Below, in pieces: positions 1 through 22,809 of a DNA stretch of 32,013 nucleotides. The stretch is taken from the UHGV virus genome UHGV-0351843; one strand, given 5' to 3'. The translations under genes and the position numbers were made by a program. The notes under the pieces were generated by a model, which was given only the letters and a program-made list of their open reading frames with translations, did no database searches and had not been told where the DNA came from. The stretch is from a virus. Position 1 is the first letter of the stretch, and each line of letters starts with the position of its first letter.

Positions 1-486
1 TATCGCGTCCTCAACAATGAATTTTGTGATGCAGTGCCTGGTGCCTCCAGGTGACGTTAACCAGTTAACAATTAACGCCGGATACAGAGAATCCACCCAT
101 AACACTGTTTTTGGTTTTAACTGTTCCGCGTGCGCTTAGCCGCATTCACCGCATCACAAAATTCACTTTAAAAACGGCGGCAGAGCAGTCACGGAGTAAA
201 ACTGATACCGCCAAACGTCACCAGAAAATTGATAACAGAGGGCGTTGCAGCGGGGTTGTCACTTAAGCGTATGGTCAACCTGACAACTCGGTGTCCTCAA
301 CGGGGAAGGAATAACCCCGCCATACTTACCGCCGCGCCATTTCGCGGGTTGCCACAACCGGAAGCGCACGGTCGAATTAAATTTAACGACACCGTACAGT
401 GAGACGAACTTCGCCGTGCGCTTTCGTGTTGTGTGCCTGCTTTTAACCACGTCAGGCGAGGTGGTATCCTTAAAATCACCACAGTT

Positions 487-4559: not shown

Positions 4560-5951
4560 TTATGCTTCATGTTGCTTTTTGAGATCGCTTCTAGCATAGC
4601 TCCACTCAATAATGTTGTCGGGTCGTTGCTGATCGAAAAGGATACGGGATTCAATACCATTACCTAAAAAGCTGGTATTCCCATCTACGTAAGAAGCTAT
4701 CCCTTGTGAACCAACACGAAGAATATTTTCTAATGGCTGCTTTGTTCTTGCTGCATCGCTAAGGAGATATAAACCCGGGTACGTTTTGTTAGCACGGTGA
4801 AAAAAAAGTTCATTGTCAAAACACATGACGATGATTATTTGTCCCGACATGAGATCGGAGAGCATTTCAGTTGGCAGATGCAAACTCATAAATGGTCGAG
4901 ACAAAGGGTCAAAGAATGAATCATTTATATTCACAACAGGGCTTTTTATACCGAGACTATCCATCCATCCATTGAAGGCAACAAAGCCCATTTCAGAATC
5001 ACGGTACATACCTAAGAACAAACATTCATCAATAGTATCAATTGCCCAATTTTTTCCTCCGCGAATAATCTCCCACATTTTAACTAAGCGGTGGGTATAA
5101 AATTCAGACGGATGATCTATCTCATTGATTTTAACTTTAGACTGATGAAAGTTGTCAAAGCCCTCGCCAGTATTAATCGCCTCCAGAACATTCATGCCAC
5201 GAATGATTTGCCTTTTTATGCGATTAAATTGCTTAACATCATTATCAGGCATATTGTTAATGAAGTTTTCTTCAAAGTGCGGACATTCTGAGATAACAGA
5301 AAATTCAGCAGCTTCATAAAGCTCATTATTCTTTTCACCTGTTTTAACTTCCACGAGCTGGAAGCCATCCAGTAGATTAAAGGTGACTAAATCTCCCACA
5401 TGAACAAATGTGCTCATGTCAGAGACAATCGCTACGGAGTGTTTGTCCTGGTTGATAAGATCGGCTGCGACCATAGAATCAATTATGTTATCTTCTGATA
5501 GATTGTCATTGCTTGCATTAATAGGTAAACGCCGCAAACTAGAGTGTTCTTCATCAAGAATGCTCCAAATTATTGAGTCAATACAACGGCGAAGAATAAG
5601 AATTTCAAATTTTTTTAAACTTATTTCATCAATACACTTTTCTTTATTTTCTTTATCCTTGTTTCGATGGTGCTCTTTTTTTTCAGTTTCCAATCTTTTT
5701 ATATCTCTCAGCCGAATAATAATCTCAAAAGATATGATTTTTTGTGAGTCTTTCCAATTTTTGAGACAGGTTTCATACTCTGCAAGAAAATCCTCATCAT
5801 TGGAAGGTAGTTCTTGAATTGGATTCCCTCCCCTTATCATTTTGGCAAGTGCATGCATTAAAGATACATAATGAGGTGATAAAATTGTCCAAAACTTCCT
5901 AAACGGTTTGTACTTTTCAAGAAAAGTTGACTCATCAGTATAATTCATCAT
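4560..5951 (-). CDS. hypothetical protein, candidate defence effector with a possible PD-(D/E)xK-like motif
   Basis: 463-aa minus-strand ORF (track 4560..5957 begins at TTG; ATG at 5949-5951 with GAGG upstream) in an AT-rich island. The central segment HVGDLVTFNLLDGFQLVEVKTGEK fits a D...(E)xK nuclease-type motif. It lies directly downstream of the AbiH-like gene on the same strand. Confidence 0.7.
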   Translation of the reverse strand: MMNYTDESTFLEKYKPFRKFWTILSPHYVSLMHALAKMIRGGNPIQELPSNDEDFLAEYETCLKNWKDSQKIISFEIIIRLRDIKRLETEKKEHHRNKDKENKEKCIDEISLKKFEILILRRCIDSIIWSILDEEHSSLRRLPINASNDNLSEDNIIDSMVAADLINQDKHSVAIVSDMSTFVHVGDLVTFNLLDGFQLVEVKTGEKNNELYEAAEFSVISECPHFEENFINNMPDNDVKQFNRIKRQIIRGMNVLEAINTGEGFDNFHQSKVKINEIDHPSEFYTHRLVKMWEIIRGGKNWAIDTIDECLFLGMYRDSEMGFVAFNGWMDSLGIKSPVVNINDSFFDPLSRPFMSLHLPTEMLSDLMSGQIIIVMCFDNELFFHRANKTYPGLYLLSDAARTKQPLENILRVGSQGIASYVDGNTSFLGNGIESRILFDQQRPDNIIEWSYARSDLKKQHEA

Positions 5952-6040
5952 AACCAAACCTCATTCCTCTTATCTATTTTCCTCAAGGTATAAAATACCA
6001 GCCTTTTTTACATAATTATAGTTATAATATGAAGTCTCAT

Positions 6041-6910
6041 TCAGATATCTTCATACTGTACGTAAGAAATATTTGAGCCTCTGATACCATAATCTTCTAA
6101 ACTGCCTGATTTTTTCTCACCTCTATATAAAGCAACTATCCATCGAGCATTTTCTTGGATGCTTTTATTTATTTCAGTAAAGTATTCACCGTCAACTTCG
6201 GCGAGCGAGTGGCCTAAAACGATGACCTCGTCCACATTTTTAAGCGATGAGAAAAAAACGTTTTCTTCTTTAATTATGTCTTCGCTGGGCTTGAATGTAT
6301 TACCGAAGTATTCGTTTATTCTGTCGTATGCCTCTGCTATTCTTGTATCTTGATCCGGTCCTATATATGGATTTAGTGACTTTTCCACCCTAAAACTATG
6401 ACCAAGTATGAGATCGTCATCGTAACTACAATTGCCGTGAATATGTATGATTTGCTCGTCTGGAACGGCATAGATCTGCTGCAAGGTATTTGTATAATTA
6501 AATGAAAAATAGATGCTTTCTCTTGGTATGGGCGGGATGTATTGCTTAGGATTGTAAGCATCGGCTATGTTAATCCCTTTAACCCAATCAGCGAATTGCT
6601 CCTTCAAACGAGCTGACAGCATTTGTGTGATTTTATTTACTTCATATTGGTAATCGTGATGATAAGCATCGCTCCAATCATCGGTATTGTATGAAGCCAA
6701 AAATATCTCACTGTTTTGAAGGATAAGCTCATAATCAATTTCACCTAAAGCATTTTCTAACTCATTCCACTCGTCCCCAGCAGGAATGTATTCTTCTATC
6801 GCGTCATATAGATCTTGGTCATTTTTTTCTACATACGACTTAAAGTGCTTGTATCCTGTTGGTAAGCCATGACGCATGTCAAATCCATTTCCTATTATGT
6901 AAAGCCTCAT
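6041..6910 (-). CDS. AbiH-like abortive-infection family protein
   Basis: ORF 6041..6961; the likely start is Met18 at 6908-6910 with AAGGGA upstream. The N-terminus MRLYIIGNGFDMRHGLPTGYKHF matches my recollection of the conserved N-terminal motif of the AbiH family; this needs HMM confirmation. AT-rich codon usage unlike the flanking phage genes. Confidence 0.65.
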   Translation of the reverse strand: MRLYIIGNGFDMRHGLPTGYKHFKSYVEKNDQDLYDAIEEYIPAGDEWNELENALGEIDYELILQNSEIFLASYNTDDWSDAYHHDYQYEVNKITQMLSARLKEQFADWVKGINIADAYNPKQYIPPIPRESIYFSFNYTNTLQQIYAVPDEQIIHIHGNCSYDDDLILGHSFRVEKSLNPYIGPDQDTRIAEAYDRINEYFGNTFKPSEDIIKEENVFFSSLKNVDEVIVLGHSLAEVDGEYFTEINKSIQENARWIVALYRGEKKSGSLEDYGIRGSNISYVQYEDI

Positions 6911-7224
6911 TGTTTTTCCCTTAGTCGAATTGTATAAAAATACTAACATGGCCTGCTCCACGTTGACTACTATCCCCTCCTTTGAGTAATGCCTTCATCA
7001 GATGTAACAACATTTGCGAGCTTCCACAGTTCGCTCAAAGCGGACTAGAAGGTTAGCTTGCGTCGGACTTGGCGTATTTAAAGAAGTGCTGGTGGAGACT
7101 GGTTGTTGTGTTCCATTTCTACAGAACAAAATCACAGAAACTATACCCAATAGTTATATTGAATCAATGATGAGACAGCCTCATATTTATCAGGACTGGT
7201 GTACGTCCAATACAGGAGGTTGTC

Positions 7225-7314: not shown

Positions 7315-7525
7315 TTTTATATTGGCGAGGTGACGTGAGTTAAGTAGAATTGCTGCGGGTGCTTGAGGCTATCTGCCTCAGGCATGAACACCAAAGGCAG
7401 ATAGAGAAAAGCCCCAGTTAACATTACGCGTCCTGCAAGACGCTTAACATTAATCTGAGGCCAATTTCATGCTAGACACATGTAGGTTAGCCTCTTACGT
7501 GCCGAAAGGCAAGGAGAAGCAGGCT

Positions 7526-7681
7526 ATGAAGCAGCAAAAGGCGATGTTAATCGCCCTGATCGTCATCTGTTTAACCGTCATAGTGACGGCACTGGTAACG
7601 AGGAAAGACCTCTGCGAGGTACGAATCCGAACCGGCCAGACGGAGGTCGCTGTCTTCACAGCTTACGAACCTGAGGAGTAA
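7526..7681 (+). CDS. hok: Hok/Gef-family type I toxin
   Basis: 51-aa product MKQQKAMLIALIVICLTVIVTALVTRKDLCEVRIRTGQTEVAVFTAYEPEE with AAGGAG upstream. It has the Hok family signature (N-terminal TM helix plus the CEVR motif) and matches my recollection of HokD/RelF-type chromosomal Hok proteins. An in-frame upstream ATG at 7469 could give a Mok-like extension. Confidence 0.85.
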   Translation: MKQQKAMLIALIVICLTVIVTALVTRKDLCEVRIRTGQTEVAVFTAYEPEE

Positions 7682-8419: not shown

Positions 8420-9469
8420 GTGCGGGTGTTACTTCGACCTGTTCTGGTACCGGAACTCGGGCTGGTGGTCGTTAAGCCGGGCCGTGAATCCATGCCGGTA
8501 TTCCACAATACCCGGGTACTGGTGGAGCCGGAACCGAAAAGCATGCGTAATCTGCCGTCCGGGGTCGTTCCTGCCGTTCGCCAGCCGCTGGTGGAAGACA
8601 AAACATTGCTGCCGTTTTTCAGTAACGCACGGGTAATTCGTGCTGCTGGTGGTGCTGGTGCATTGTCTGACTGGCTGTTGCGCCATATTAAATCCTGCCA
8701 GTGGCCACACGGCGATTATCATCACAGCGAAACCGTTATTCACCGATATGGTACCGGCGCAATGGTGTTGTGCTGGCACTGCGACAACCAGCTGCGTGAC
8801 CAGACATCCGAATCACTCGAGCAACTTGCTCATCAAAACCTGTCAGCATGGATGATTGACGTCATCGGTCACGCAATAAGCGGTACGCAGGAGCGTGAAT
8901 TATCTCTGGCTGAATTATCCTGGTGGGCGGTCCGCAATCAGCTGGCGGACGCGCTACCGGAAGCGGTATTACGTCGCTCGCTGGGATTACCAGCGGAAAA
9001 AATCTGCTCGGTGTACCGCGAAAGCGACATCGTACCGGGAGAGCAGACCGCCACCAGCATATTGAAACAGCGCACAAAAAATCTTGCACCGTTGCCTCAC
9101 GCCCACCAGCAACAAAACCCATCACAGGAAAAGACGGTGGTAAGCATCACCGTTGATCCAGAGTCTCCGGAATCTTTCATGAAGCTGCCTAAACGTCACC
9201 GGTGGGTTAAGGAGAAATACACACGCTGGGTTAAGACACAGCCGTGTGCTTGCTGCGGTATGCCAGCCGACGATCCGCATCATCTGATTGGTCACGGGCA
9301 GGGCGGAATGGGAACCAAAGCACATGATCTCTTTGTTTTGCCTTTGTGCAGAAAGCATCACGACGAGTTGCATACGGATACCGTGGCATTTGAAGAGAAG
9401 TATGGCTCCCAACTGGAGCTGATTTTTCGATTTATCGATCGCGCGCTGGCAATTGGTGTGCTGGCCTAA
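8420..9469 (+). CDS. DUF968-family protein (YdfU-like) with C-terminal Cys/His cluster
   Basis: 349 aa, GTG start with GGAGG 5 nt upstream. The C-terminal segment [43 protein letters not shown] is as I recall the DUF968/YdfU family found upstream of Q in Qin-type prophages. Confidence 0.75.
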
Positions 9470-9486
9470 TTTTGTGGAGTAAGTTG

Positions 9487-9864
9487 ATGCGTGATATTCA
9501 GATGGTTCTTGAGCGTTGGGGGGCATGGGCGGCTAATAATCATGAAGATGTGACCTGGTCGTCCATTGCCGCCGGTTTTAAGGGATTAATTCCTTCAAAA
9601 GTAAGATCTCGTCCGCAATGCTGTGACGATGACGCGATGATCATTTGTGAATGTATGGCTCGCCTGAAAAAAAACAACAGCGATTTACATGATTTATTGG
9701 TGGACTATTATGTCGGCGGCATGACTTTTATGGCGCTTGCACGTAAGCATGGGCGATCTGATTGTTGGGTTGGCAGGATGCTCCAGAAAGCTGAGGGCGT
9801 AGTGGAGGGCATGCTGATGGTGTTGGATCTCCGATTGGAGATGGATGCTGATTGTTCGAAATAA
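9487..9864 (+). CDS. late-gene antiterminator Q (short Q family, QuuD-like)
   Basis: 125 aa from the ATG at 9487 (track ORF begins at TTG 9472). It sits directly upstream of a terminator and the lysis region, the synteny expected for Q. Confidence 0.7.
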
Positions 9865-9874
9865 TTAAAGGAAA

Positions 9875-9915
9875 AGTTGCTGTCTGATTTTCATTAGTCT
9901 AACATTTTAAATGTT
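9875..9915 (+). promoter_or_regulatory. putative late promoter pR' and Q-utilisation region
   Basis: TTGCTG, then about 17 nt, then TAACAT immediately downstream of Q. This is a positional inference. Confidence 0.3.
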
Positions 9916-9962
9916 GGAATCGCAACGTAGTTATTATCATATAACAGCTTGTTTCCTGATTT

Positions 9963-9992
9963 AGCCAGCCTCCCCAAAGGCTGGTTTTTTTC
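9963..9992 (+). terminator. rho-independent terminator (tR'-like)
   Basis: Stem ccagcct / loop ccccaa / stem aggctgg followed by tttttttt. Confidence 0.65.
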
Positions 9993-10019
9993 TAATAAGT
10001 ATCATTTCGGGTGGGGATT

Positions 10020-10108
10020 TTATTGTTTAACCCATAATAGTTCATTGACATTGAATCCCAACTTTTGAGCGGTACGCACATAGTCTGCTTTTACATTATC
10101 TGGAATAG
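10020..10108 (-). pseudogene. 3' fragment of a Blc-like lipocalin gene displaced by the IS3 insertion
   Basis: Reading the minus strand across the IS3 target duplication continues the lipocalin frame as ...IPDNVKADYVRTAQKLGFNVNELLWVKQ-stop (stop at 10020-10022). This resembles the Blc C-terminus as I recall it. Confidence 0.7.
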
Positions 10109-10164
10109 TGATCTTACCCAGCAATAGTGGACACGCAGCTAAGTGAGTAAACTCTCAGTCAGAG

Positions 10165-10473
10165 GTGACTCACATGACAAAAACAGTATCAACCAGTAAA
10201 AAACCCCGTAAACAGCATTCGTCTGAATTTCGCAGTGAAGCCCTGAAGCTTGCTGAACGCATCGGTGTTACTGCCGCAGCCCGTGAACTCAGCCTGTATG
10301 AATCACAGCTCTACAACTGGCGCAGTAAACAGCAAAATCAGCAGACGTCTTCTGAACGTGAACTGGAGATGTCTACCGAGATTGCACGTCTCAAACGCCA
10401 GCTGGCAGAACGGGATGAAGAGCTGGCTATCCTCCAAAAGGCCGCGACATACTTCGCGAAGCGCCTGAAATGA
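10165..10473 (+). CDS. insE: IS3 OrfA (transposase N-terminal HTH protein)
   Basis: The 102-aa product begins [19 protein letters not shown]... and matches my recollection of IS3 InsE. Confidence 0.9.
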
Positions 10474-11336
10474 AGTATGTCTTTATTGAAAAACATCAGG
10501 CTGAGTTCAGCATCAAAGCAATGTGCCGCGTGCTCCGGGTGGCCCGCAGCGGCTGGTATACGTGGTGTCAGCGGCGGACAAGGATAAGCACGCGTCAGCA
10601 GTTCCGCCAACACTGCGACAGCGTTGTCCTCGCGGCTTTTACCCGGTCAAAACAGCGTTACGGTGCCCCACGCCTGACGGATGAACTGCGTGATCAGGGT
10701 TACCCCTTTAACGTAAAAACCGTGGCGGCAAGCCTGCGCCGTCAGGGACTGAGGGCAAAGGCCTCCCGGAAGTTCAGCCCGGTCAGCTACCGCGCACACG
10801 GCCTGCCTGTGTCAGAAAATCTGTTGGAGCAGGATTTTTACGCCAGTGGCCCGAACCAGAAGTGGGCAGGAGACATCACGTACTTACGTACAGATGAAGG
10901 CTGGCTGTATCTGGCAGTGGTCATTGACCTGTGGTCACGTGCCGTTATTGGCTGGTCAATGTCGCCACGCATGACGGCGCAACTGGCCTGCGATGCCCTG
11001 CAGATGGCGCTGTGGCGGCGTAAGAGGCCCCGGAACGTTATCGTTCACACGGATCGTGGAGGCCAGTACTGTTCAGCAGATTATCAGGCGCAACTGAAGC
11101 GGCATAATCTGCGTGGAAGTATGAGCGCAAAAGGTTGCTGCTACGATAATGCCTGCGTGGAAAGCTTCTTTCATTCGCTGAAAGTGGAATGTATCCATGG
11201 AGAACACTTTATCAGCCGGGAAATAATGCGGGCAACGGTGTTTAATTATATCGAATGTGATTACAATCGGTGGCGGCGGCACAGTTGGTGTGGCGGCCTC
11301 AGTCCGGAACAATTTGAAAACCAGAACCTCGCTTAG
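10470..11336 (+). CDS. insF: IS3 OrfB (transposase catalytic DDE domain; expressed as an OrfAB fusion by programmed -1 frameshift)
   Basis: 288 aa overlapping orfA by 4 nt, with a DDE integrase-type core (HTDRGGQY...). Frameshift expression is established for the IS3 family; the exact slippery site was not pinpointed. Confidence 0.9.
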
Positions 11337-11366
11337 GCCTGTGTCCATATTACGTGGGTAGGATCA

Positions 11367-11805
11367 TAGTTTGGGTCCTTGCCAGAATCCATAGGTATTC
11401 TCTGTTCGGACCACTGACAAGAGCATACTTATACTCATCATCCAGTTTGATTACATTATAGCCACCATAGAAGGGGCCAAAAAACGAAACTTTCAACGCT
11501 GCAGTTTTAGTATCTCCAGTAAAGTATGCTTTACCTTCGCTCTCGCTCCATTTGTTTTTCGTTGGATCGTATCCACGGTTAAGTACGCGAATCCCTCCGT
11601 CGTTCCGTTTTTCATAAGTAGCGCTGACCTGTTCCAGACCACGTTCGAACCAGTTCTCGAGGCGAGCTATTTCATACCATTTTCCGAGGTAGCGGTTGGC
11701 GTCAAAATTTGTAATCGGCTGCACACCTTTAGGTGGTGTCGGGGCCTTACATGCTATAAGAGTGAAAGAGAGTGCAATGCCAGTCAACACAGGCCATAAC
11801 TTCAT
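11367..11805 (-). pseudogene. Blc-like outer-membrane lipocalin lipoprotein, 5' portion, interrupted by IS3
   Basis: Track ORF 11350..11805 runs 17 nt into IS3 before a stop. N-terminal lipoprotein signal MKLWPVLTGIALSFTLIAC with lipobox LIAC. Motifs FDANRYLGKWYEIARLENWFERGLE and KVSFFGPFYGGYNVI match Blc as I recall it. Confidence 0.8.
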
Positions 11806-11997
11806 AATAAATCCTGTACTTTTGATAGTTGAGAGTAAGTATGAAAGATAGATGAGTACGACCGATCACTTAAAGAACTTTCCTACTATATTAGGAATAG
11901 TCAATAACAGAAAAATTGTCAGTGATGAAGCCAGAAAGGCAATTTAGTCCGTGCACTACAAAGTTTATGTGTTAATGAATTAGTCAAGGGGGAGGAA

Positions 11998-12957
11998 ATG
12001 ATAAAAAAACCTGTGATTGGGATCAGCGGTTGTTTGGGTGGTTCTGCTGTTCGTTTTGATGGTGGTCACAAAAGAGATGACTTTTTAATGGACAAATTAG
12101 TGGAATGGGTAACATTCAGACCAGTATGTCCGGAAATGGCTATAGGGCTGCCAGTTCCGCGTCCTGCTCTACGACTTGTGCGCTCGAAGCAAGGAAATAT
12201 ACGGATGTGTTTCAGCCACGACCAGAATGAGGATGTGACAGAGAGAATGACAGAGTTTAGTCGTTCTTATATGGACAAATTAAAGGATGTATCGGGGTTT
12301 GTGGTTTGTGCTAAATCTCCCAGCTGTGGCATGGAGCGCGTGCGTGTCTATGATGAAAATGGTAATCGAGGTCGTAAAGATGGAGTGGGACTATTTACGA
12401 GCACTTTGATGGAAAAGTTTTCCTGGCTACCGGTTGAAGAGGATGGGCGATTACATGATCCAGTGCTTCGTGAGAATTTTATTGAAAGAGTTTTTGCTTT
12501 GCATGAGCTCAATCACCTTTACAAGGAGAAATTATCAAGAAGAGAGTTATTAGCTTTTCATAGTCGTTATAAGCTTCAGTTGTTGGCGCATAGCCAGGCA
12601 GGCTATAAAGATATGGGACCATTTGTGGCTGCAATACACGAGTGGGCGGACCTTGAATCATACTTTGAGGTGTATCGTGATAATCTGATGGCGATTCTCA
12701 GAAAACCAGCATCACGTAAAAATCACACGAATGTGCTGATGCATATACAGGGGTATTTTAGTAATTACTTAAGTACACGCCAGCGTAAAGAGTTGAGCGA
12801 GGTTATACTTAACTATCGCTTTGGCACATTGCCTCTTCTTGCGCCGTTGACTCTGCTGAAGCATTATCTGGGTGAGTATCCTAATGATTACTTGCTTACA
12901 CAGAATTACTTCGATCCCTATCCGGAAGAACTGGCTCTAAGACTGATGGTGAATTAA
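11998..12957 (+). CDS. YbgA-like protein (DUF523/TudS-like N-terminal domain plus DUF1722 C-terminal domain)
   Basis: The 319-aa product starts MIKKPVIGISGCLGGSAVRFDGGHK, which matches my recollection of the YbgA/DUF523 N-terminus. GGAGG lies upstream. Confidence 0.65.
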   Translation: MIKKPVIGISGCLGGSAVRFDGGHKRDDFLMDKLVEWVTFRPVCPEMAIGLPVPRPALRLVRSKQGNIRMCFSHDQNEDVTERMTEFSRSYMDKLKDVSGFVVCAKSPSCGMERVRVYDENGNRGRKDGVGLFTSTLMEKFSWLPVEEDGRLHDPVLRENFIERVFALHELNHLYKEKLSRRELLAFHSRYKLQLLAHSQAGYKDMGPFVAAIHEWADLESYFEVYRDNLMAILRKPASRKNHTNVLMHIQGYFSNYLSTRQRKELSEVILNYRFGTLPLLAPLTLLKHYLGEYPNDYLLTQNYFDPYPEELALRLMVN

Positions 12958-13363
12958 CTGTATGCGATATCATCTGAAAGTGATGAGTTCCTGTATGCAG
13001 GATATTTACAATCGTAAAAACTACGCTATGATGCTCATAGTGTCAGTTTTTATAAAAATCCTGTTCACGCTAAAGAAAACATTGAGATGCAATTTAATGT
13101 TGGTAAACATACCAGCCCCAAAAGATTTTATTCAATCTGTTTTTATATGAAGATATTTCAAGTGAATATTAAGAGCATATAATATTATTATTGCACGCAG
13201 CTATTATAATATAACAGATTAGTTTAATGATTTGTTTTTTGTGAGTTAAACACATGGTTTTATAGTTGTGATGCAATGAGATTTTCCTTATTGTTGAACT
13301 GGCGAATATTGATTTTCCACCTATACTTACCTGGTGTAACCCCAATGATATCAGGTGGATAAT

Positions 13364-14077
13364 ATGCCATACATATGTTCTATCATTTTGGTGTTGAACT
13401 CGTTTGGTGTCCGAATTGGTAAAGAAGATATTTTGTTTAAAAAAGGAAATGCTGTCCTCATTGAATACAATTTAAAAGATCTTTTTTCGTCAAATACAGA
13501 TCATCTAATGATCGTAGATGTTGAGGAGAAAACAGTTAATGATTTCTTTAAAAACTACACACTCTCACCTTTTTCTGTAAGAAGGTTTTATCCGTCATAC
13601 TTGATAGTAGAATGTGAAGATTTTTCATTGTTAAAGAACTTGGTTGCATGCTTGAATTGTGATAGCAAAACCGTGGATGTAGTTAGAAATCAAATATCAC
13701 TTGCATGTCTTGCTGTCTTATCTTCAGAGAAAATGGTGCAAAGTTTTTTGTTCGGAAGTCTTAATAGCTTAGGTTGTAAAGTTAAGGCTATTATTCACTC
13801 GGATATCTCAGCGTCATGGAGACTTTGTGATATATCTTCAAGATTATATATGAGCGAGAGTTTGTTAAAAAGAAAATTAAAAGACGAAGGATTATCGTTT
13901 AGTAAATTAATTCTTGAAGAACGAATGATGATGGCGCAAAGATTATTGATCTACAGTAACCATACTGTCGGCAAGGTGGCGGGAATATGCGGGTATGACA
14001 ATGCATCATATTTTGTAAGTGTTTTTAGAGGATATTTTGGTGTGCCTCCGCACCAATATTTATCAAGATTTTCTTAG
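13364..14077 (+). CDS. AraC-family transcriptional regulator (prophage moron)
   Basis: Track ORF starts at GTG 13355; the ATG at 13364 has AGGTGG upstream. The C-terminal AraC-type HTH is VGKVAGICGYDNASYFVSVFRGYFGVPPHQY. The gene sits in an AT-rich island. Confidence 0.75.
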   Translation: MPYICSIILVLNSFGVRIGKEDILFKKGNAVLIEYNLKDLFSSNTDHLMIVDVEEKTVNDFFKNYTLSPFSVRRFYPSYLIVECEDFSLLKNLVACLNCDSKTVDVVRNQISLACLAVLSSEKMVQSFLFGSLNSLGCKVKAIIHSDISASWRLCDISSRLYMSESLLKRKLKDEGLSFSKLILEERMMMAQRLLIYSNHTVGKVAGICGYDNASYFVSVFRGYFGVPPHQYLSRFS

Positions 14078-14267
14078 AAGATATGATGTGATGGCATTTT
14101 ATAAAGTTATTTTTTGAAGTGTAAGATTATACGATATTTTTAGCTACGCCAGAATAATTGCTGGCGTTTTTCTTTTTGAATAGATGTTCGGGCCTTACGC
14201 TAATGTAACTTCTTTCCTTCTTCGAACCAAACCGTGTACACCATCCGTTATCTGCGGAGGTGAGGCT

Positions 14268-14483
14268 ATGAAATCCATGGATAAGTTAACAACGGGCATC
14301 GCCTACAGCACCTCTGCAGGCAGTGCTGGCTACTGGTTTTTACAGTTGCTCGATAAAGTCACGCCCTCACAGTGGGCGGCAATAGGTGTATTGGGTAGTC
14401 TGGTATTTGGCATGCTGACGTATCTGACAAATCTTTATTTCAAGATTAAAGAAGACAGGCGTAAGGCTGCGAGAGGAGAGTAA
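14268..14483 (+). CDS. class II holin / pinholin (S21-like) with dual-start motif
   Basis: The product [71 protein letters not shown] has two TM segments and a Met1-Lys-Ser-Met4 dual start. It matches my recollection of the phage 21 S protein. Confidence 0.85.
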
Positions 14484-14487
14484 TCCA

Positions 14488-15823: not shown

Positions 15824-16186
15824 ATTAATATTAAATCGGATTATTTTTAGCGCTGAATGTGAAATTTAAATAAAAAGGACTCTTCCATGAGTCAAAATCC
15901 TTGAAATCTTAAGGGTAAGATAAAAGGTCATTAGACAGAATGACACGTTTTATTAATAAATAAAGCTATTGTTTCATTCGTGTGTTTTTCTTTACAAAAG
16001 TAATCCTTGCTATGGTTGGTTAATCATGCGTTAATGGTGTTCTGGTTTGTTACAAAATTATCTGAAGCAGTCATTGTTATAATTTTATTATTTGTACCTC
16101 TTGAGATTTCCTTGTTGGTTTTTCTCTCTGATATTTTTTTTCGGACCATTCTGCCCAAGGGCTAACTTCTTCAAAAGGTAATAATG

Positions 16187-16399
16187 ATGTCTAACAAAAT
16201 GACTGGTTTAGTGAAATGGTTTAACCCTGAAAAAGGTTTTGGTTTCATCACGCCGAAAGATGGTAGCAAAGATGTGTTTGTGCATTTCTCAGCTATTCAG
16301 AGCAACGATTTCAAAACGTTAACTGAGAATCAGGAAGTCGAATTTGGTATTGAGAACGGACCTAAAGGCCCTGCAGCTGTTCATGTAGTGGCACTTTGA
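16187..16399 (+). CDS. cspI: cold-shock protein, CspA family
   Basis: The 70-aa product [70 protein letters not shown] has RNP1/RNP2-like motifs (KGFGFI, VFVHF). It is preceded by a long AT-rich leader. Confidence 0.9.
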
Positions 16400-16603
16400 G
16401 GTAGAAAATATTACAAACCATATTCACTTTAGATGCCCGTGTTGCCATGGTTCTCAGTATAGAACATCATCTTTTGATGTTTCTGACAGAAATCCTTTCG
16501 GGGCAAAATGTATCTTTTGTAAATCAATGATGATTACATTTGATAATATTTCACAATACTTAAATGTTAGCCATCTGTCGTTAGATTTAAGAAAGTGAAA
16601 ATG

Positions 16604-16628
16604 AAGGCTCCTTCGGGAGCTTTTTTGC
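16604..16628 (+). terminator. rho-independent terminator
   Basis: ggctcc / ttcg / ggagc followed by tttttt. Confidence 0.5.
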
Positions 16629-16670
16629 TTAGTGTCTAGTCGATGGATACTCACATATTACGGTAACATT

Positions 16671-16901
16671 ATGAAAAAAATAATAGTTTTTTTTAACTCT
16701 GAACCAGCAATGGTAGTGCCAGTGATGACCGGAGTTAACACCATCATGCGTGAATATCCAAATGGCGAAACAACACACCTCACTGTAATGGCTGCAGGGT
16801 TTCCATCTCTGACCGGAGATCATAAAGTCATTTATGTAGCAGCGGATCGACATGTAACTTCAGAAGAAATTCTGGAAGCAGCAATGAGACTCTTGAATTG
16901 A
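16671..16901 (+). CDS. small hypothetical protein (YnfN-like position)
   Basis: Start MKKIIVFFNSEPAMVVP at ATG 16671 inside track ORF 16632..16901. It sits between csp and gns genes, as in Qin. Confidence 0.5.
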   Translation: MKKIIVFFNSEPAMVVPVMTGVNTIMREYPNGETTHLTVMAAGFPSLTGDHKVIYVAADRHVTSEEILEAAMRLLN

Positions 16902-17070
16902 TTTGATTCTAATGCATTGATAATAAATGATAATCATCTTTATCTGTTTGTGTGAAATTTAGACCGTCGTATGTTGATTATTGCGATGTTTCATCTTATC
17001 TTTTATACGTTTGCTCCATATAATTGACACTACTGTGTACCAGGACAGTCATAACAGACTAAAAGAGGAA

Positions 17071-17247
17071 ATGATGAACATTGAAGAGTTAAAAACAAAA
17101 ACAGAAGCAGATATTTCTGAATATATAACAAAAAAAATCATTGAGCTTAAGAAAAAGACCGGGAAAGAAGTTACCAGTATCCAGTTTACTGCACGGGAAA
17201 AAATGACTGGTCTTGAAAGCTATGATATCAAGATTGATTTAATCTAG
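17071..17247 (+). CDS. GnsA/GnsB-family protein
   Basis: Product MMNIEELKTKTEADISEYITKKIIELKKKTGKEVTSIQFTAREKMTGLESYDIKIDLI with AGAGGA upstream; it matches the Gns family as I recall it. Track ORF 16981..17247 has a spurious N-terminal extension. Confidence 0.7.
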   Translation: MMNIEELKTKTEADISEYITKKIIELKKKTGKEVTSIQFTAREKMTGLESYDIKIDLI

Positions 17248-17542
17248 CATGTTTATAGTATTAGCATCAATTTCTCATCAGATGCTATTCAACAATACAA
17301 ATTACCCATAAACCTCGTTTTTACGGGGTTTTGTTATATTTAAACATTACCGAATAGATATAAATCTCGATTGTCGATGGTATTGGTTGTGTGACAATAC
17401 CTAGTCTTTCCGGTATGCCTGAAGAGAATACAAACGACAGATTATGTAAGGGAAACGCGCTGAAACTTTCACTCTTTCATGCTGAGTGATTTGACGTTAT
17501 ATTTTTAGCCGCAAGTGAAGAGCAAACGAATGGAGCGACAAA

Positions 17543-19128: not shown

Positions 19129-22809
<3,681 letters not shown>

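Follow-up and report, generated by a model that had tools for sequence, protein, structure and literature searches.

Introduction

RudS proteins are fusions of a TudS domain with a DUF1722 domain, which turn the 4-thiouridine of tRNA into uridine (Jamontas et al., 2024; PMC11417400). The reaction relies on a [4Fe-4S] cluster held by three cysteine residues, which are Cys12, Cys44, and Cys110 in the case of RudS_vir, and the tRNA is bound by the DUF1722 domain. The rudS genes of Salmonella and Enterobacter cloacae were reported to have a MerR-type neighbor, and this partner has been tied to light-inducible expression, while Escherichia coli was stated to lack RudS, the strains discussed holding only the stand-alone DUF1722 protein YbgA (PMC11417400). 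The lipocalin gene blc has been described as a moron carried by over half of the lambda-like phages of the infant gut (Mathieu et al., 2020). The AraC-type regulators PatE, PsrB, and AppY switch on both gadE and hdeA and make the cells more resistant to acid; the Psr proteins thereby repress type III secretion (PMC10877973, PMC10057817). Here we analyze the virus genome UHGV-0351843 (32,013 nucleotides, called the window below), a lambdoid prophage of E. coli of the Qin/DLP12 type, in which relatives of these three kinds of genes lie between the late antiterminator gene Q and the holin gene.

We put at roughly 75% the probability that this Q-holin interval is a conserved and widespread cassette of three cargo genes with the following functions. 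The blc gene would specify a lipocalin lipoprotein of the outer membrane and is knocked out here by an IS3 element. RudS would carry the [4Fe-4S] cluster of its TudS domain on the same three cysteines as RudS_vir and, with Glu46, Ser107, and Ser109 as catalytic residues, would convert the 4-thiouridine of tRNA held by the C-terminal DUF1722 domain; less crosslinking of tRNA by near-ultraviolet light, and hence a weaker growth delay under ultraviolet A (UVA), would be expected. The third product would be an AraC-type regulator forming a third lineage beside PatE and PsrB, with a terminator-like hairpin of its own after the gene, and would most likely bind AT-rich promoters (gadE, hdeA) and raise acid resistance, by analogy with its relatives. 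The reading with the best support is that of a cargo cassette with two working genes in the window, namely rudS, the activity of which is known from its orthologue, and a regulator gene of the PatE/Psr type, the function of which is predicted.

The Cargo Cassette between Q and the Holin Gene

Sequence comparisons with DLP12 of E. coli K-12 confirmed that the interval is a real cargo (moron) cluster. The homology is confined to the Q and holin genes: that between Q and quuD (84% nucleotide identity, window 9445-9846) stops at 9846, and that between the holin gene and essD (89%, window 14248-14484) begins at 14248. The extra DNA between these two anchors is filled differently in DLP12, where nmpC, a reverse-strand outer-membrane protein gene broken by IS5, occupies the slot in which blc, broken by IS3, is found here. 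In Stx phages, the same Q-to-S slot is occupied by stx, as an initial annotation of the window had pointed out, and the cargo itself differs from one phage to another. The composition of the block containing the AraC-type gene also departs from that of the flanking phage genes. Its G + C content is 31.0% in the spacer, 33.6% in the gene, and 33.4% throughout the 1.3-kb block (12958-14267), vs. 43.1% in rudS, 47.4% in the lysis genes, 47-49% in the flanks, and 49.3% in the whole window, so that the AT-rich block and the approximately 400 bp of AT-rich DNA upstream of the gene had been correctly described. The positions initially given to the various elements were exact or nearly so, apart from the holin gene, which starts at 14268 and not at the ATG at 14184, and from the left end of the cargo, which begins at 9865.

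The cassette is common among E. coli strains. In a sample of 5426 complete E. coli genomes (coverage of at least 80%), the 2.9-kb stretch 11300-14200 was found in 891 genomes (16%), rudS alone in 1064 (20%), and the regulator gene alone in 996 (18%). It was also present in 12 isolated phages, consisting of IdasGreatGrand and eleven lambda-like records including 1H12, always in the order Q, blc (minus strand), rudS, AraC-type gene, and holin gene, and the same order was observed in a set of 80 viral contigs (IMG/VR loci). A DUF523-type enzyme had initially been regarded as an unusual cargo, which does not hold in view of the frequency of rudS and of the fact that blc is already a noted moron.

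The three genes are mostly intact in these 80 loci and all of them are under purifying selection. Full-length rudS genes were found in 79 loci and full-length blc genes (174 aa) in 78; the regulator gene was intact in 64 loci, disrupted in 11, without any match in four (two of them at contig ends), and cut by the contig end in one. Pseudogenization in homologs, which would have spoken against the initial proposals, is thus not general and affects a minority of the copies of the regulator gene. The ratios of nonsynonymous to synonymous divergence (dN/dS), calculated with respect to the window allele, were 0.14-0.27 in the case of rudS and 0.10-0.28 in that of blc, and the ratio for the regulator was about 0.2 between allele groups.

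Two observations on these loci may be mentioned here. In the 85% identical regulator allele, a run of eight T residues (T8) is found near codons 38-40 (L045-L065, around 5425-5435, corresponding to 13478-13487 of the window), and the frame is broken at this point in 7 of the 80 IMG/VR loci, the four aligned ones carrying T7 or T6; these breaks reflect either a recurrent slipped-strand inactivation or a homopolymer sequencing error. In the window allele, the run is interrupted (GATCTTTTTTC) and the gene is intact. Two short contigs (L144 and L149) assigned to the metagenome-assembled genome (MAG) Candidatus Nanosynbacter sp. D148_maxbin.008 (Saccharibacteria) also carry the cassette, with Q, blc, rudS, the regulator gene, and the holin gene and 92-98% protein identity, and are almost certainly binning contaminants.

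TABLE 1. Features of the Q-holin interval and of its two anchors, in window coordinates.
Feature	Position	Strand	Description
Q, late antiterminator gene	9487..9864	+	82/DLP12 QuuD type; Pfam Phage_antitermQ, 171 bits; left anchor
Cargo interval	9865-14267		Between Q and holin gene; includes IS3 and both blc fragments
Hairpin and T-run about 100 nt past Q	9963..9995	+	9 pairs, 5 of them G-C, then TTTTTTCT; candidate for tR', where the short late leader RNA would end, placed by position only
blc 3' remnant	10020..10108	-	Last 29 codons and stop; 100% identical to the 3' end of the intact blc of relative L001 (5916-6005)
IS3, 1258 bp	10109..11366	+	orfA 10165-10473, orfB 10470-11336
blc 5' part	11367..11805	-	Holds codons 1-145 of the 174-codon gene for an outer-membrane lipocalin lipoprotein; inactivated here
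blc/rudS divergent intergenic region	11806..11997	.	34% GC; presumed to hold the predicted promoters of blc and rudS
rudS	11998..12957	+	TudS(DUF523)-DUF1722 fusion, 319 aa; Pfam domains; orthologue of RudS_vir
AT-rich spacer upstream of AraC-family gene	12958..13363	.	406 bp, 31.0% GC
Promoter-like sites in spacer	13005-13032 and 13239-13266		Consensus level
Weak hairpin with T-run in spacer	13023-13043		
AraC/XylS-family regulator gene	13364..14077	+	237 aa; PatE/Psr/AppY/YdeO subgroup; Pfam HTH_18
Terminator-like hairpin and T-run	14146..14177	+	Clean; immediately follows the regulator gene, ahead of the holin gene; ACGCCAGAATAATTGCTGGCGTTTTTCTTTTT
Holin gene	14268..14483	+	essD type, P21-type; annotated essD in identical relatives; right anchor

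The features of the interval are listed in Table 1. Q is annotated as a protein of 125 aa in the identical relative L001, and the lysis genes occur in the order essD, ydfR, rrrQ (lysozyme), and rzpQ (Rz). The counts obtained in the terminator scan were not above those of the shuffled controls, and since the scans were at the control level, the parts list was restricted to the two clearest hairpins. Rfam and tRNA gene searches yielded nothing within 9865-14267, and no tRNA genes were found in the window; outside the interval, Rfam identified DicF, sok, and the cspA-type leader only. The repeats present in 11780-14280 were limited to short matches in two copies, such as chance would produce, with no shared operator-like motif. 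An open reading frame (ORF) of 62 aa in the spacer (12962-13150) is probably spurious: it has no family match, and the nucleotide similarity to the 1H12 group stops inside it, at about 13075. The label given by PHROGs to all three cassette families is "unknown function," and PADLOC gave no match for RudS or for the AraC-family regulator.

The lipocalin ORF (minus strand, 11350-11805) is Blc-like without its C-terminus (NCBIfam PRK10477, 273 bits; Pfam Lipocalin_2, 128 bits) and is transcribed in the opposite direction to the late operon. The boundaries of the IS3 element were set by comparison with the uninterrupted and otherwise 100% identical relative L001. The element, the termini of which are TGATCTTACCC...GGGTAGGATCA, is 99.5% identical to IS3C of K-12 and is flanked by a 3-bp target duplication, TAG (10106-10108 and 11367-11369), inside blc, as expected from the IS3-disrupted lipocalin recognized initially. 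The interval is a repeated target of insertion sequences at different sites (the window and the relatives L008, at 19665-20923, H6, H13, and H14). Strain PO06101 has an IS3 in the spacer that follows rudS, at the position corresponding to 13028-13030, and IS1 (IS1A) and IS903B are present in the same interval of other strains.

The RudS Enzyme

Profile searches matched in full the two Pfam domains that had been proposed: 2-thiour_desulf/DUF523 (PF04463) at residues 7-149 (137 bits) and DUF1722 (PF08349) at residues 192-309 (136 bits). The protein is 92% identical in amino acid sequence to RudS_vir (phage 1H12 gp66, H3V29_gp66) over all 319 residues, without any gaps. Both proteins have the same architecture and length, and none of the 26 substitutions between them occurs at the listed cluster or catalytic positions. 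In 1H12, the RudS_vir gene has the same neighbors as the window gene, namely Q, a minus-strand blc, an AraC-type gene, and the holin gene, although blc is broken by IS3 only in the window copy.

None of the cluster and catalytic residues is missing. Cys12, Cys44, and Cys110 occupy the positions listed for RudS_vir and RudS_ST and align with Cys10, Cys43, and Cys104 of TudS (6Z92), which the window protein matches over residues 6-114 only (E 8e-4). The motifs CPE (Glu46) and SPSCG (Ser107, Ser109) also align with 6Z92 and are identical in RudS_vir, as is Arg55, which was located by its spacing from Cys44; these catalytic residues were put on the RudS_KT numbering (Glu51, Ser111, Ser113, and Arg60) by offsets only. 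We infer from these resemblances that the window protein is a [4Fe-4S] tRNA 4-thiouridine desulfidase, an enzyme which is itself already known.

Two other identities were considered and rejected. A stand-alone TudS consists of a single domain of about 150-170 aa, vs. the 319 aa of the present fusion. The YbgA equivalog (NCBIfam PRK10167) was matched with 189.1 bits, below the cut-off of 237, over residues 161-315 only, and the protein has an additional TudS domain: YbgA of K-12 (b0707), a stand-alone DUF1722 protein without any TudS domain, matches only the C-terminal half. The domains assigned to the "YbgA-like" gene in the initial annotation hold, but its name has to give way to that of an orthologue of RudS_vir. 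Thiouracil desulfidase, an activity which had been suggested along with an assay, is not the best description either, the substrate of RudS_vir being tRNA 4-thiouridine; the assay has in effect been published for the orthologue (PMC11417400).

The AraC-Family Regulator

The regulator ORF spans 13355-14077 on the plus strand. The ATG at 13364 is likely to be the true start, because a product of 237 aa is annotated in a 100% identical copy (RefSeq) and the alignment with the phage orthologues begins at this point. HTH_18 was matched at residues 161-237 (59.8 bits, cut-off 33.6), together with HTH_AraC, which places the protein in the AraC/XylS family and upholds the AraC-type assignment made initially. 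No curated equivalog was reached; YdeO (NCBIfam PRK09940) scored best and was rejected, with 112.7 bits vs. a cut-off of 348. The family to which the regulator belongs is narrow and nearly restricted to E. coli.

The suggested comparison with PatE and the Psr proteins revealed a relationship running from end to end, including the N-terminal domain, which places the window protein in the PatE/Psr/AppY/YdeO subgroup. The regulator shows 48% identity to ECs_0287 of strain Sakai, the probable PatE (the sole AraC-type gene annotated in Sp1 at thrW), and 37% to the probable PsrB, a 237-aa gene product of the OI-57 region of EDL933; the values for AppY and YdeO are 30% and 29%. The N-terminal motif MxxxCS(V/I)I is common to all five proteins. 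In the DNA-binding half, the identity reaches 65% with the probable PatE, 53% with the probable PsrB, and 39% with AppY. Like the window regulator, PatE, PsrA/PsrB (of enterohemorrhagic E. coli, EHEC, O157:H7), and AppY (of DLP12) are borne by prophages and AT-rich, and the probable psrB occupies the same Q-holin slot, between an antiterminator and a holin gene, beside tRNA genes and a PerC/Pch-family gene. The window regulator nevertheless differs from these proteins in that it constitutes a lineage of its own, has a divergent N-terminal domain, and is always paired with rudS.

In the AlphaFold (AF2) model, which was built with 14 homologs (pLDDT 86), an N-terminal beta domain is joined by a helical linker to two helix-turn-helix units. 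The best full-length Foldseek matches were Rns/CsvR of enterotoxigenic E. coli and ToxT of Vibrio cholerae (E 3e-11 to 1e-7), fatty-acid-responsive virulence regulators having a similar fold but a sequence identity of just 17-20% over their full length. The modeled C-terminal domain can be superimposed on the DNA-binding domain of GadX (3MKL) with a TM-score of 0.87-0.90 and a root-mean-square deviation of 1.2-1.4 A (40% identity). The regulator is therefore predicted by the model to have the two-domain fold of the ToxT/Rns type.

Members of this regulator family also occur elsewhere in lambdoid genomes. In phage mEp332 (L156, 2492-3244), a PatE-like gene follows a tail-fibre assembly gene and is itself followed by an annotated transposase gene, and both ECs_0287 (L004, 19102-19845, Sakai Sp1) and appY (L090, 17681-18430, DLP12) lie downstream of tail-fibre genes. 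Since the position in the present case is between Q and holin, the family occupies two different cargo slots. A review places psrA at Z1789 in OI-50; no AraC-type gene is annotated in Sakai Sp6 or in the corresponding prophage of EDL933, and tblastn gave no match in the Sakai stretches.

Origin of the Cassette

A scan of bacterial chromosomes, with one genome per species, yielded 64 rudS loci, or 62 after exclusion of the two E. coli-like MAG contigs mentioned above. Identities of 66-76% to the phage protein were obtained for the chromosomal RudS orthologues, which come from Citrobacter, Enterobacter, Leclercia, Kluyvera, Klebsiella, Pectobacterium, and other genera, and those of Salmonella (ORF319/STM1389), Enterobacter cloacae, and Citrobacter have the same length and architecture. 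A blc homolog (68-80% identical) lies upstream of rudS and divergent from it at 42 of the 64 loci (41 of 62 without the MAG contigs). In Citrobacter sedlakii, blc directly adjoins rudS with a phage-like spacing, while the two are separated in Enterobacter cloacae by genes of the MerR/MlrA-like and transthyretin-like types, one of each. The MerR/MlrA-type neighbor of the chromosomal gene is thus replaced in the phage version by an AraC-type gene, with no MerR gene, and no homolog of the window regulator was found at any of the 62 chromosomal loci. As shown by this comparison, blc and rudS were captured jointly from an enterobacterial chromosome without the MerR partner. The blc-rudS intergenic sequence is kept in phage 1H12 but showed no conservation in the chromosomal Citrobacter or Enterobacter loci compared, so that no conserved MerR-type operator can be deduced from it. 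In Citrobacter braakii ATCC 51113, two rudS copies were observed on different contigs (L092 and L093), both 75% identical to the phage protein and without any blc neighbor within 4 kb.

The AraC block constitutes a separate addition, because its composition differs and its synonymous divergence is higher, by a factor of about six at most: 0.30 for the regulator vs. 0.045 for rudS in the IdasGreatGrand-type allele, and 0.58 vs. 0.29 in the 1H12 type. The linkage between the regulator and rudS has been maintained across three allele pairs, the respective RudS/AraC identities of which are 100/100, 97-98/85, and 92/77%, and all 12 phage records with a 77-86% identical regulator homolog carry rudS. 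To our knowledge, which is based on a limited search of the literature, neither the cassette as a unit nor its chromosomal origin has been described previously.

Proposed Function and Alternative Explanations

By analogy with PatE, PsrB, and AppY, it is plausible that the window regulator may act on host promoters. Several points nevertheless weigh against the functions proposed above. The names PatE and PsrB were attached to ECs_0287 and to the EDL933 gene on the basis of their location and not by a check of sequence against name. The N-terminal half of the regulator is only 35% identical to that of the probable PatE and 24% to that of the probable PsrB, so that the signal, and possibly the targets, may differ. 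The regulator gene is disrupted in 11 of the 76 loci with a match, vs. at most 1 of 80 in the case of rudS, which suggests that the regulator is more dispensable than the enzyme. The promoter-like matches were at chance level, 14 being found vs. 11.6 +/- 3.2 expected from shuffled sequence. Lastly, RudS_vir showed the weaker activity on tRNA of the enzymes tested, despite its good expression, and its lag on 4-thiouracil was shorter than that of any other RudS protein tested (PMC11417400), which leaves some room for a role on free thiolated bases.

The alternative that survives best, although it can be held only tentatively, is that rudS serves the lytic cycle: transcribed late under the control of Q, it would strip 4-thiouridine from host tRNA, and the synthesis of late proteins after induction by ultraviolet light would then escape being slowed by crosslinked tRNA or by the stringent response. 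The gene lies on the late strand, downstream of Q and of the tR'-like terminator, and the plus-strand genes of the cassette would all be in the path of Q-modified late transcription. Moreover, rudS is kept intact in plaque-forming or virion-isolated phages, and RudS overexpression was reported to lessen the UVA growth delay (PMC11417400). In the window, however, the 1.26-kb IS3 and an antisense gene separate Q from rudS, and the chromosomal rudS homologs are host stress genes. A lytic role would also be compatible with expression in the lysogen, for which putative promoters belonging to the cassette itself would be required.

It seems rather doubtful that the AraC-type protein is a local regulator controlling rudS, blc, or both in place of the MerR-type regulator, rather than the acid-resistance genes of the host. 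The inheritance of rudS and the regulator together in the phage records, the parallel order in which their allele pairs diverge, the nearly equal numbers of E. coli genomes carrying them (1064 vs. 996), and the loss of the MerR gene would all be expected in this case. The regulator gene is located downstream of rudS, however, with the AT-rich spacer between them, and rudS is intact despite frameshifts in the regulator gene or its loss (the 11 disrupted copies, and L010 and L077, which have no match). No repeat or operator-like motif is common to the blc-rudS intergenic region and the region upstream of the regulator gene, and the relatives PatE, PsrB, and AppY work at distant host promoters.

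It is unlikely that RudS acts on thiolated bases or nucleotides in free form (thiouracil, 4-thio-UMP), in the manner of the stand-alone TudS. The TudS domain is complete in its cluster and catalytic residues, and the short lag of RudS_vir mentioned above would be in keeping with such a role. A uracil auxotroph grown on thiouracils was rescued by TudS, whereas none of the RudS proteins did so comparably and no variant supported growth on 2-thiouracil. All the RudS variants tested, including RudS_vir, lowered the tRNA 4-thiouridine content of E. coli, on which the stand-alone TudS and YbgA of E. coli had no effect (PMC11417400), and the DUF1722 domain is described there as tRNA-binding. The least probable explanation, that of decaying passenger DNA of a defective prophage without any current function, would account for the destruction of blc by IS3 in the window, the IS3, IS1, or IS903B copies present in the same interval of other strains, and the disrupted regulator genes, but is disfavored by dN/dS values of 0.1-0.3 across the three genes, the full-length rudS and blc genes found in nearly all the viral loci, the presence of the cassette in isolated, viable phages, and the activity of the orthologous enzyme RudS_vir (PMC11417400).

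Other Features of the Window

The gene set found elsewhere in the window includes DicF, hok/sok, and a DUF968 gene upstream of the cargo slot and cspI and lambda-like head and tail genes downstream of it. As in Qin of K-12, the DicF RNA (175-226, minus strand) and the sok antitoxin RNA (7357-7531, plus strand), which lies beside hokD, were both identified. A second AT-rich block (15824-17300, 34% GC) follows the Rz gene and constitutes another late-operon cargo region; it holds cspI, the leader of which is a cspA-type thermoregulator (Rfam RF01766, 16029-16445), along with ymcF, ynfN, and other small ORFs. In the early region, the segment 4388-7015 looks like a variable defence slot: it contains an AbiH abortive-infection gene (ORF 6041-6961, minus strand; Pfam 233 bits; PADLOC AbiH) and, downstream on the same strand, a 465-aa ORF (4560-5957, minus strand) matched by neither Pfam nor PADLOC. 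A YobI P-loop NTPase gene takes the place of this block in the prophage of strain PO06101, which is collinear in other respects.

Significance

The cassette is real, common, and largely ordinary, and the regulator is an uncharacterized third lineage of a known family. Since the enzyme has already been characterized, the value of the finding lies in its context. The cassette is a clean example of the capture by a phage of a chromosomal stress locus, blc-rudS, minus its MerR-type regulator, and the captured genes stay linked to an AT-rich AraC-type regulator belonging to a family which controls acid resistance and type III secretion in EHEC.

It is a speculative idea, to which we give little credence at present, that rudS and the regulator constitute a functional pair by which lambdoid phages reprogram the stress physiology of their host. 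If this were the case, about one-fifth of E. coli strains would gain an otherwise absent eraser of tRNA 4-thiouridine, which would be turned on by the linked regulator or else through the Q-dependent late transcription that follows induction by ultraviolet light. This would reset the crosslink-prone tRNA and blunt both the UVA growth delay and the stringent response at the very time at which translation is required by the phage or by the stressed lysogen.

The presence of the regulator in about 18% of the complete genomes makes it a reasonable candidate for a regulatory link from prophage to host in commensal and pathogenic strains of the species. The published absence of RudS from E. coli holds true for K-12 and not for the approximately 20% of complete genomes carrying rudS on a lambdoid prophage, and many natural isolates may therefore not display the phenotypes related to UVA and tRNA thiolation that were established in K-12.

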